NCBI RefSeq assembly: GCF_044324785.1
Contig: NZ_CP172127.1
Direction: 5' to 3' (one strand)
DNA length: 64,000 bases
Source of the DNA: Escherichia coli
Lineage (GTDB): Bacteria > Pseudomonadota > Gammaproteobacteria > Enterobacterales > Enterobacteriaceae
Below are positions 26,127 to 28,425 of this stretch, in pieces. Position 1 is the stretch's first letter; each line of letters opens with the position of its first letter. The notes under the pieces were generated by a model. It was given only the letters and a program-made list of their open reading frames with translations. It searched no databases and was not told the DNA's origin. Both the position numbers and the translations under genes were made by a program.

Positions 26127-26873
26127 ATGAGCCAATATTTGATTTTTCAGCTTCATGGGCCAATGGCATCCTGGGGCGTCGATGCCCCCGGCGAAGTGCG
26201 TCATACCCATGAACTGCCTTCGCGCTCAGCATTGCTGGGGCTGCTGGCTGCCGGGGTAGGGATTCGGCGTGATGATACCGAACGATTAAACGCGTTTAAC
26301 CGCCACTATTCACTGGTGGTTTGCGCCAGCCGTAACCCGCGCTGGGCACGGGATTATCACACGGTCCAGATGCCAAAAGAGGTGCGTAAAGCGCGTTATT
26401 TCAGCCGTCGCGAAGAGTTGAGCGCCCCTGATCTTCTGAGCGCGATTATCTCCCGGCGCGACTACTACACCGATGCCTGGTGGATGGTGGCGGTGGCAAC
26501 AACCCCCGATGCGCCTTACAGCCTTGAACAGTTGCAGGACGGTTTACGTCATCCGGTTTTTCCGCTTTATCTGGGGCGAAAAAGTCATCCGCTGGCGTTA
26601 CCACTTGCGCCGTTACTGCTCGAAGGCAACGCGTCTGATGTCTTACGTAACGCATACCAACAGTATCAGGATAGTTTCCGCGAACTGAAAGTCTCACTCC
26701 CGAAACTTCAGGATGAATGCTGGTGGGAAGGGGAACACGACGGCCTGGTCGCGAGCAAAATATTACGTCGCCGGGATGTTCCTTTAAATCGTCAGCAGTG
26801 GCTGTTTGGGGAACGCACCATCAATCAGGGGCCGTGGCTCAGCAAGGAGGAACCATGTACCTCTCAAGAATAA
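26127..26873 (+). CDS. casD: Cas5e/CasD
   Basis: 248-aa ORF; N-terminus MSQYLIFQLHGPMASWG resembles K-12 CasD (MRSYLILRLAGPMQAWG). Confidence 0.85.
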   Translation: MSQYLIFQLHGPMASWGVDAPGEVRHTHELPSRSALLGLLAAGVGIRRDDTERLNAFNRHYSLVVCASRNPRWARDYHTVQMPKEVRKARYFSRREELSAPDLLSAIISRRDYYTDAWWMVAVATTPDAPYSLEQLQDGLRHPVFPLYLGRKSHPLALPLAPLLLEGNASDVLRNAYQQYQDSFRELKVSLPKLQDECWWEGEHDGLVASKILRRRDVPLNRQQWLFGERTINQGPWLSKEEPCTSQE

Positions 26874-27505
26874 CCTTACATACCGGCCAGCTTTCGCCTG
26901 CGCAGTTGCTGCATTTGGTGGATCGCGGTGAATATGTAATGCATCAGTGGCTGTGGGATCTTTTTCCTGGCGGCAAAGAAAGGCAATTTCTTTATCGTCG
27001 GGAAGAACTCCAGGGGGCGTTTCGCTTTTTTGTCCTGTCGCAGGAACGCCCGGCGGAAAGTGATATTTTCACCATCGAATGCCGACCATTTGCGCCAGAG
27101 TTGCGTACCGGACAATCCCTTTGTTTCAACCTCCGGGCGAATCCAACAATTTGTAAAGCGGGCAAACGCCACGACTTGCTGATGGAGGCGAAACGGCAGG
27201 TGAGGGGGCAGGTGGAAGGAAGTGATGTCTGGTTGCATCAACAACAGGCTGCGCTGGACTGGCTGGCAGCGCAGGGGGAGAGAAGCGGTTTTACACTGCT
27301 GGATACTTCGGTTGATGCCTACCGACAACAGCAACTGCGGCGGGAAAACTCCCGGCAACTGATCCAGTTCAGTAGCGTGGATTATACGGGGATGCTTACG
27401 GTCACCGATCCTGGGTTATTTCTGCAACGTCTCAGTCAGGGGTATGGCAAAAGCCGGGCGTTCGGTTGTGGTCTGATGCTGATCAAACCCGGAGCAGAGG
27501 CGTGA
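26855..27505 (+). CDS. casE: Cas6e/CasE crRNA endoribonuclease
   Basis: 216 aa from MYLSRITL (AAGGAGG SD upstream); K-12 CasE also starts MYLS; C-terminal GCGLM motif; 19-nt overlap with casD. Confidence 0.85.
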   Translation: MYLSRITLHTGQLSPAQLLHLVDRGEYVMHQWLWDLFPGGKERQFLYRREELQGAFRFFVLSQERPAESDIFTIECRPFAPELRTGQSLCFNLRANPTICKAGKRHDLLMEAKRQVRGQVEGSDVWLHQQQAALDWLAAQGERSGFTLLDTSVDAYRQQQLRRENSRQLIQFSSVDYTGMLTVTDPGLFLQRLSQGYGKSRAFGCGLMLIKPGAEA

Positions 27506-28425
27506 CGTTTGTACCGCTGAGCCCGATCCCATTAAAAGATCGCACTTCCATGATCTTCCTCCAGTACGGTCAAATCGACGTACTGGACGGCGCTTTCGTG
27601 CTGATCGACAAAACCGGGATCCGCACGCATATTCCAGTGGGATCGGTCGCCTGCATTATGCTCGAACCGGGAACAAGAGTTTCCCACGCGGCAGTCCATC
27701 TGGCCGCCACGGTGGGGACGCTACTGGTCTGGGTCGGTGAAGCGGGTGTTCGCGTCTACTCTTCCGGACAACCCGGTGGGGCGCGTGCTGATAAGTTACT
27801 CTACCAGGCAATGCTGGCTTTAACGGAAGATCTACGCCTGAAGGTGGTGCGCAAAATGTATGAATTACGTTTTCGTGAGCCACCGCCAGCTCGCCGTTCA
27901 GTGGAGCAGCTACGGGGAATTGAGGGATCCCGCGTTCGCCAGACCTATGCATTACTGGCGAAACAATATGGTGTGAAATGGAATGGTCGCAAATACGATC
28001 CTAAAGACTGGGAAAAAGGCGATGTTGTCAATCGCTGCATCAGTGCTGCCACATCATGCCTGTACGGTATTTCTGAAGCGGCAGTATTAGCTGCGGGATA
28101 TGCGCCCGCTATTGGTTTTATCCATAGTGGCAAACCGCTTTCATTTGTTTACGACATAGCCGATATCATTAAATTTGATTCGGTTGTACCAAAGGCATTT
28201 GAAATAGCGGCGAGGCAACCCGCAGAACCTGATAAAGAAGTCAGGTTGGCTTGTCGCGATATTTTCCGTAGCTCTAAGTTAACGGGCAAATTAATTCCGT
28301 TAATTGAGGAAGTGCTTGCCGCAGGTGAAATTGAACCACCACAACCCGCGCCGGATATGTTACCGCCAGCCATCCCCGAACCTGAAACGTTGGGCGATAG
28401 CGGTCATCGAGGACGCGGCGGATGA
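27502..28425 (+). CDS. cas1: Cas1 integrase
   Basis: GTG start overlapping casE stop (GTGA); product [27 protein letters not shown]... closely matches K-12 Cas1 as recalled; 307 aa. Confidence 0.9.

Follow-up and report, generated by a model that had tools for sequence, protein, structure and literature searches.

Junction layout and predicted nonsense polarity in a type I-E cas operon of Escherichia coli with a premature stop codon in casC

One of the closest described relatives of the locus examined here, a type I-E CRISPR-Cas locus in a 64,000-nucleotide (nt) stretch of Escherichia coli DNA (assembly GCF_044324785.1, contig NZ_CP172127.1; the whole stretch is referred to as the window), is the casABCDE12 operon of E. 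coli K-12 (ygcL-ygbF, b2760-b2754). The cas operon is normally silenced by H-NS in E. coli, as established for K-12. The K-12 operon has been described as one transcription unit, and its plasmid-borne form gave low Cas5 and Cas6 levels and better downstream expression after deletion of an upstream gene (PMC12235044). Quax et al. (2013) reported that open start regions track subunit abundance, with the I-E Cascade operon among their three showcase operons, and that translation of the most abundant subunit begins independently inside the operon, from the ribosome-binding region with the least structure (PMC13347799). ATGA and GTGA overlaps with a Shine-Dalgarno (SD) sequence inside the upstream gene couple neighboring genes in E. 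coli by termination-reinitiation (Huber et al. 2019, PMC6728339; 2023, PMC10666635). With reporters, coupling was seen for four of five native E. coli pairs with a distance of -4 and in most cases depended on the SD sequence; the fifth, bioBF, initiated de novo (PMC6728339). The -4 (ATGA) arrangement is the commonest single configuration in E. coli, where 24% of unidirectional pairs genome-wide fall in the -8 to +6 class; pairs at +9 to +12 are considered likely to initiate independently or to be coupled via long-range RNA interactions (PMC10666635). Reinitiation was variable at +2 to +14 and was reduced by 80 to 100% at 38 nt, and long untranslated stretches destabilize E. coli mRNA (PMC10666635). 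In the literature we found no direct test of translational coupling or nonsense polarity within a cas operon.

The type I-E locus of the window lies on the plus strand at 19822-29451, between cysH and iap, as in K-12 and other E. coli. The gene order, cas3-A-B-C-D-E-1-2 with an adjoining array, is canonical for type I-E. The operon is an ordinary E. coli type I-E operon, of the variant shared with O157:H7, E. albertii and Salmonella; it has one inactivated gene, casC, and is predicted to be interference defective. An initial annotation had described start/stop overlaps throughout the cas operon, had regarded them as fitting translational coupling, and had suggested that a premature stop in casC could thereby reduce translation of the downstream gene, casD. 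Our analysis points to a different route. We consider it likely that the junctions follow the standard layout and that the casC stop acts by classical nonsense polarity, not by uncoupling of overlaps.

The distances between adjacent genes from casA to cas2 are -4, +14, +10, -19, -4 and -4 nt. casA and casB share an ATGA at 24510-24513 (casA TGA, 24511-24513; casB ATG, 24510-24512) with AGGAGG upstream. casD and casE overlap by 19 nt at 26855-26873 (casE ATG at 26855; casD TAA, 26871-26873), and casE has its SD sequence, AAGGAGG (26844-26850), 4 nt before its ATG and within the 3' end of casD. This is the strongest SD sequence in the operon, with an anti-SD duplex of -11.4 kcal/mol. casE and cas1 share a GTGA at 27502-27505, in which cas1 begins with GTG at 27502 and casE ends with TGA at 27503-27505; cas1 and cas2 share an ATGA at 28422-28425 (cas2 ATG at 28422; cas1 TGA, 28423-28425). 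Weaker SD sequences precede cas1 (GGAG) and cas2 (GAGGA). At each of these four junctions, the SD sequence for the downstream gene sits in the upstream coding sequence. The four overlaps had been named in the initial annotation and agree with the sequence in every detail, including the GTG start and the internal AAGGAGG; the range assigned to them, 26855-28425, omitted the casA/casB overlap.

The other two junctions are spacers. The 14 nt between casB and casC (25047-25060) carry a weak SD sequence (AAGGA), and the 10 nt between casC and casD (26117-26126) read TAA-ggggcggcta-ATG, with the casD SD sequence, AAGGGG, located 6 nt from the casD ATG and straddling the casC stop codon. cas3 is a separate unit, 429 nt upstream of casA. 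Overlaps are thus present at four of the six casA-to-cas2 junctions and not throughout the operon, and some SD-like motif precedes every cas gene. Three junctions (casA/casB, casE/cas1 and cas1/cas2) belong to the -4 class. Like the pairs of Huber et al. (PMC6728339; PMC10666635), they combine ATGA or GTGA with an SD sequence in the upstream gene and encode subunits of a complex (CasA-CasB in Cascade; Cas1-Cas2), but their coupling in this operon is predicted from sequence alone. The longer casD/casE overlap is outside the -4, -1 and -8 classes of these authors, and casC-casD, at +10, is in their likely independent class. The earlier reading that the junctions fit translational coupling is therefore reasonable for the three -4 pairs, a class coupled experimentally (PMC6728339, PMC10666635), and does not extend to the noncanonical casD/casE overlap or to the two spacers. 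Inspection by eye only revealed no slippery heptamer in ATGTACCTCTCAAGAATAA that would support a CasD-CasE fusion by programmed frameshifting in the 19-nt overlap.

The start sites on which these distances depend are not artifacts of open reading frame (ORF) calling, because several lines of evidence agree. The NCBI Prokaryotic Genome Annotation Pipeline (PGAP) annotation of E. coli 06-00048 has the same six distances. The alignments to NCBIfam profiles begin at residue 1 in CasE, residue 3 in Cas2 and residue 8 in Cas1, and the Cas1 N terminus, MxxVPLxPIPLKDR, is conserved from residue 1 in an alignment of 13 Cas1e proteins. Salmonella, Klebsiella, Citrobacter and Atlantibacter share the casE/cas1 GTGA, and E. 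albertii has ATGA at that position.

Compared with the window, the K-12 operon has distances of -8, +12, +2, -14, +15 and +1, so that the pattern is the same at the first four junctions and K-12 has gaps at casE-cas1 (+15) and cas1-cas2 (+1), where the window has GTGA and ATGA. The K-12 Cascade proteins are a different sequence variant, although Cas1 is still 85% identical, and casC is intact in K-12. Operons of the same variant as the window (E. coli 06-00048, E. albertii, Salmonella enterica subsp. diarizonae, Klebsiella and Citrobacter) have distances of -4, about +3 to +14, +9 or +10, -19, -4 and, for cas1-cas2, -4 to +3. The GTG start of cas1 is conserved among them; unlike in the window, where Glu83 is replaced by a stop, casC is intact.

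A survey covered 80 I-E loci taken from gammaproteobacterial species genomes via Cas1e alignment. Genes were located by BLASTP comparison with the proteins of the window and of K-12; starts were picked by alignment position, codon type and SD sequence, a procedure that returned the annotated junctions of K-12 and E. coli 06-00048 exactly. The loci were collapsed to 47 clusters at <80% identity of concatenated CasC, CasD and CasE. casC and casD were separated by a positive spacer in 46 of the 47 clusters (+1 to +18, most commonly +9, typically TAA-GGAnnnnnn-ATG), and casB and casC were so separated in 41 of 42 cluster representatives. For casD-casE, 45 of 46 clusters had a distance between -20 and +1 (-19, -14, -11, -1, 0 or +1); the -19 overlap occurs in Escherichia, Salmonella, Klebsiella, Citrobacter and Atlantibacter, and -14 occurs in the K-12 type. 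A strong SD sequence within casD was always present at this junction, and the casE SD sequence was the strongest across loci (median anti-SD duplex, -10.7 kcal/mol). Among the relatives, casE-cas1 varied from -4 to +517, and cas1-cas2 stayed short (mostly -4 to +6, with an extreme of +13). Distances for casA-casB were noisy in divergent loci, where CasB N termini align poorly, and were usable only for the E. coli, Salmonella and K-12 types.

The openness of each start region was predicted from RNA structure as the energy needed to open positions -15 to +13 around the start codon in a -60 to +40 context. For reference, the median for 300 random intragenic positions of the same operon was 12.1 kcal/mol, and the 5th percentile was 7.2 kcal/mol. 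The predicted values in the window were 6.2 for casA, 9.4 for casB, 4.4 for casC, 13.6 for casD, 10.4 for casE, 12.2 for cas1 and 11.2 kcal/mol for cas2. casC was at percentile 0 of the random sites and casA at the 3rd. The five starts that are not open spanned the 22nd to 62nd percentiles, with casB, casE, cas1 and cas2 (9.4 to 12.2 kcal/mol) at the 22nd to 52nd and casD at the 62nd. Among cluster representatives the median opening energy was 5.0 kcal/mol for casC, 7.3 for casA and 9.7 to 12.1 for the others, and casC was the first or second most open start in 40 of 42 complete loci. From the survey a simple rule emerges for I-E operons: spacers lie on both sides of casC, the start of which is predicted to be open, and casD and casE always abut, in agreement with published differential translation. 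As in the study of Quax et al. (PMC13347799), the least structured predicted start in the window is that of casC, which is not coupled to the genes beside it; here the pattern is derived again, from 47 diverged I-E clusters and another E. coli variant, and no new principle is involved. Cascade reportedly contains six Cas7 subunits per complex (Jore et al. 2011, as cited by Quax et al.).

We also compared the number of overlaps with a background, the non-cas same-strand neighbor pairs in the 64 kb of E. coli 06-00048 that correspond by synteny to the window. Overlaps were found in 16 of 40 background pairs; among pairs separated by 30 nt or less, the count was 16 of 26. The probability of at least four overlaps among six junctions was 0.18 against all background pairs and 0.58 against the close pairs; it was low (0.033) only against the genome-wide rate of 24%. 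The cas operon overlaps are normal bacterial gene packing, with no excess over local expectation.

The premature stop in casC is a TAA at codon 83 (25307-25309), produced by a G-to-T change at 25307 that converts GAA to TAA relative to E. coli 06-00048. It is the only in-frame stop inside the gene and lies 817 nt upstream of casD. The same TAA was present in four of the five NCBI assemblies with an identical CasA, and those four are 99.99 to 100% identical to the window over about 11 to 13.6 kb. The exact 82-amino-acid (aa) truncated CasC is recorded on 140 contigs and a 201-aa C-terminal fragment on 120. A search of 5,426 complete RefSeq E. coli genomes found no copy of the TAA; the best match was 120 of 121 bases. 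Judged from these matches, it is a real, lineage-fixed inactivating mutation. Rescue of Cas7 by an in-frame restart was rejected: the first candidate is a TTG at codon 151, whose product would lack at least residues 83 to 150. Only out-of-frame ORFs of 12 to 41 aa occur near the TAA. Further downstream, an in-frame ATG at 26084 (casC codon 342; 26084-26116) is preceded by an SD-like GGGAAG. Some sister assemblies (L004, L006 and L007) carry a 1.3-kb insertion sequence, encoding a 370-aa DDE transposase, between hok and cas3 at about locus position 1350-2690; the window is without it.

How might this stop affect casD? A reduction of casD expression is not derivable from the overlaps, because casC-casD is not among them. 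The suggestion that the stop lowers casD translation through overlap coupling is countered by the 10-nt spacer, by the SD sequence that casD has of its own, and by the retention of a spacer in nearly all clusters; nonetheless, other mechanisms make the direction of the proposed effect plausible. At +10, the natural spacer falls in the range of weak coupling, because reinitiation is variable at +2 to +14 and is largely lost at 38 nt. The casD start is without predicted openness and therefore may need ribosomes translating casC for its unfolding. From the TAA to the casD start, 817 nt are untranslated, with no in-frame restart before codon 151, as nonsense polarity would require. Immediately after the TAA there is a C-rich, G-poor stretch on the plus strand (25344-25477) that is a candidate Rho loading site by a heuristic measure (78-nt windows with C/G ratios up to 1.92), and a second C>G stretch lies in the untranslated part of casC on the same strand at 25789-25930 (C/G up to 1.79, by the same heuristic). 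By this crude proxy for Rho sites, 16% of the 78-nt windows in the untranslated stretch had a C/G ratio above 1.3, compared with 9% operon-wide. The locus thus shares with classical nonsense polarity an early nonsense codon and a long untranslated RNA containing C>G stretches, and polarity itself is predicted here. It is plausible that the 817-nt segment favors Rho-dependent polarity and mRNA decay, with a joint reduction of casD, casE, cas1 and cas2 as the expected outcome, and that CasD is reduced in the lineage with the casC nonsense codon.

An internal promoter that would bypass polarity was rejected as a candidate, with no signal above chance. A consensus scan found four promoter-like sites in 22400-29000, compared with 6.2 ± 2.6 in shuffled sequences, and no plus-strand site between the casC TAA and casD. 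Nor was there an excess of terminators.

The arrangement that we favor, standard junctions plus nonsense polarity, can be formulated as follows. casA and casC, with unstructured starts, would be the two predicted sites of autonomous ribosome loading, and loading at casC in its own right would fit the need for six Cas7 copies per Cascade. casB, casD, casE, cas1 and cas2 start inside the preceding gene or no more than 10 nt from it, in RNA predicted to be structured like random coding sequence, and probably depend on ribosomes arriving from upstream. Handover at the ATGA and GTGA overlaps would be by termination-reinitiation; at casD (+10) and at casE (-19, with its very strong SD sequence), it would be by ribosome-driven unfolding. 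The casC TAA would then lead to Rho-dependent termination and mRNA decay in the 817-nt stretch, together with a loss of the ribosome-mediated opening of the casD start. The expected knock-on effect would be on casD, casE, cas1 and cas2 and would not be a loss of overlap-type coupling.

Three other explanations were weighed. The operon might be a single overlap-coupled chain, in which the casC stop directly uncouples casD by depriving it of adjacent termination and reinitiation. Four junctions do overlap, and the casC stop is so close to the casD ATG, with the SD sequence spanning it, that a terminating ribosome would sit on the casD ribosome-binding site; E. coli test pairs also keep some reinitiation, of variable efficiency, at distances of +2 to +14 nt (PMC10666635), and structure is predicted around the casD start. 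The overlaps cited for such a chain, however, belong to other junctions. casC and casD do not overlap here or in 46 of 47 related clusters, the +9 to +12 class has been read as likely independent or long-range coupled (PMC10666635), and at 817 nt polarity at the transcript level would dominate and would hide a translational effect unless mRNA was also measured. We regard a single coupled chain as unlikely.

At the opposite extreme, the overlaps could be without regulatory role, neutral by-products of compact operons and of drifting start and stop codons, with each cistron initiating from its own SD sequence. The overlap frequency, which equals the local background (16 of 40; P = 0.18), is consistent with this notion, as are the SD-like motif before every gene, the wide variation among relatives at casE-cas1 (-4 to +517) and cas1-cas2 (-4 to +13), including the +15 and +1 of the K-12 variant, and the de novo initiation of bioBF (PMC6728339). 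Against it, all but one of 46 clusters keep casD and casE at a distance of -20 to +1 despite changing sequence and overlap length, which points to selection for their juxtaposition; the downstream start regions are not open, and the other four of the five native -4 pairs tested were coupled (PMC6728339). We consider purely neutral overlaps improbable, to about the same degree as the single chain. Finally, the casC stop could be a sequencing or assembly error in an intact operon, a view that has in its favor the single-base difference from all complete RefSeq E. coli genomes. The recurrence of the TAA in four independent, nearly identical assemblies, and of its 82-aa product and the 201-aa fragment on 140 and 120 contigs, makes an error exceedingly improbable.

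Several points weigh against the standard layout with nonsense polarity that we prefer. Coupling, polarity and start-site structures are predictions throughout, and the C/G ratio gives only a rough indication of Rho loading. The SD sequence that belongs to casD is itself reasonable and is 39 to 70% unpaired in the predicted ensemble, with the AUG 69 to 99% unpaired, so substantial independent initiation at casD may be possible. Opening energies vary with the window of positions chosen, and this kind of measure has about 20% false positives (Quax et al., PMC13347799). The survey loci share phylogeny, so the Wilcoxon P values for the opening energies are inflated; start-codon choice in the divergent loci is heuristic and clearly noisy for casB. 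The ATG at casC codon 342 could, speculatively, return ribosomes to the last 10 casC codons, and these would end beside the casD ribosome-binding site even in the nonsense mutant.

All genes of the locus were matched by subtype-specific NCBIfam profiles above curated cutoffs, and all cas genes other than casC are full length. They are on the plus strand. cas3 (19822-22521; 899 aa) is intact, matches cas3_core and cas3_HD above cutoff, and has the same length as in E. coli 06-00048. casA/cse1 (22951-24513; 520 aa; TIGR02547, E = 4.6e-183) is the first cistron, followed by casB/cse2 (24510-25046; 178 aa; TIGR02548, E = 7e-30) and by the casC/cas7e pseudogene (25061-26116; 351 codons with one internal stop), the two fragments of which match TIGR01869 positions 1 to 79 and 83 to 325. 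casD/cas5e (26127-26873; 248 aa; TIGR01868, E = 1e-46) is intact and identical to that of E. coli 06-00048. casE/cas6e (26855-27505; 216 aa; TIGR01907, E = 7e-86, aligned from residue 1), cas1e (27502-28425; 307 aa, GTG start; TIGR03638, E = 8e-114) and cas2e (28422-28715; 97 aa; TIGR01873, E = 4e-39) complete the operon. The CRISPR array (28812-29451) begins 97 nt after cas2, is oriented as the cas genes are, and consists of 11 repeats of 29 nt with a 61-nt period, in keeping with the 29-nt repeats and 32- to 33-nt spacers of a canonical type I-E array.

The closest complete E. coli genome is that of strain 06-00048, 98.4% identical over casA-cas2; among complete RefSeq E. coli genomes the highest identities were 98.4% for the cas region and 99.1% for mutS-hypE. 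Database entries for the exact CasA and Cas3 proteins of the window are assigned to Escherichia coli. Differences from 06-00048 within 19822-28715 are distributed unevenly: none in casD and cas2, 2 each in casB and cas1, 4 in casE, 26 in casC, 59 in cas3 and 61 in casA. This mosaic divergence suggests recombination breakpoints within the operon.

A solitary CRISPR-repeat-like element, TTCCCCGCGTCAGCGGGGATAAG, corresponding to the 23-nt core of the I-E repeat, is located on the minus strand at 22550-22572, in the cas3-casA interval, 29 nt after the cas3 stop and in the opposite orientation to both arrays of the window. A perfect 11-bp hairpin at 22526-22551 precedes it. E. coli 06-00048, the five assemblies with identical CasA and Klebsiella spallanzanii carry exact copies in the corresponding position, and a degenerate copy occurs in Atlantibacter; no such copy was found in E. 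albertii, Salmonella diarizonae or the other related genera checked. Possible interpretations are a terminator for cas3, a relic, or an ectopic repeat of a regulatory type, such as those described for other systems (PMC9458426). The second array of the window, of nine repeats, is on the plus strand at 2200-2716 in the ygcE-queE interval, and a solitary repeat-like copy, TTCCCCGCGTCAGCGGGGATAAC, lies at 3345-3367, about 630 nt past its last repeat. Elsewhere, the pphB-mutS interval, part of the polymorphic mutS-rpoS region, differs from that of E. coli 06-00048: at 43546-44899 the window lacks about 6 kb (the ygbI-ltnD-otnK-ygbLMN cluster) and has in its place a 177-aa ORF (44324-44857) with a hydrophobic, signal-peptide-like N terminus.

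The architecture of this operon is already known. Thousands of type I-E loci already have such overlaps in their annotation, no junction type is commoner in E. coli operons than an overlap of start and stop codons, and both overlap coupling and differential Cascade translation have been published. The locus is no departure from known kinds and is of little importance. What our analysis corrects is the reading of the junctions around the broken gene: casC is precisely the cistron without overlap coupling to its neighbors, and predictions for CasD, CasE, Cas1 and Cas2 should rest on Rho polarity and start accessibility. Cascade does not assemble without Cas7. The question of casD is therefore functionally secondary, and polarity, if real, would matter mainly for Cas1-Cas2. 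A more tentative extension, which we think possible although doubtful, is that casA and casC are the only two entry points, so that most translation of casD and casE, together with that of cas1 and cas2 in this variant by way of the GTGA/ATGA chain, would be carried out by ribosomes derived from casC. If this is true, an early nonsense codon in casC would silence both interference and spacer acquisition in the lineage, even when the operon is derepressed, and the 1:1 ratio of Cas5 to Cas6e would be set by the conserved juxtaposition of casD and casE.

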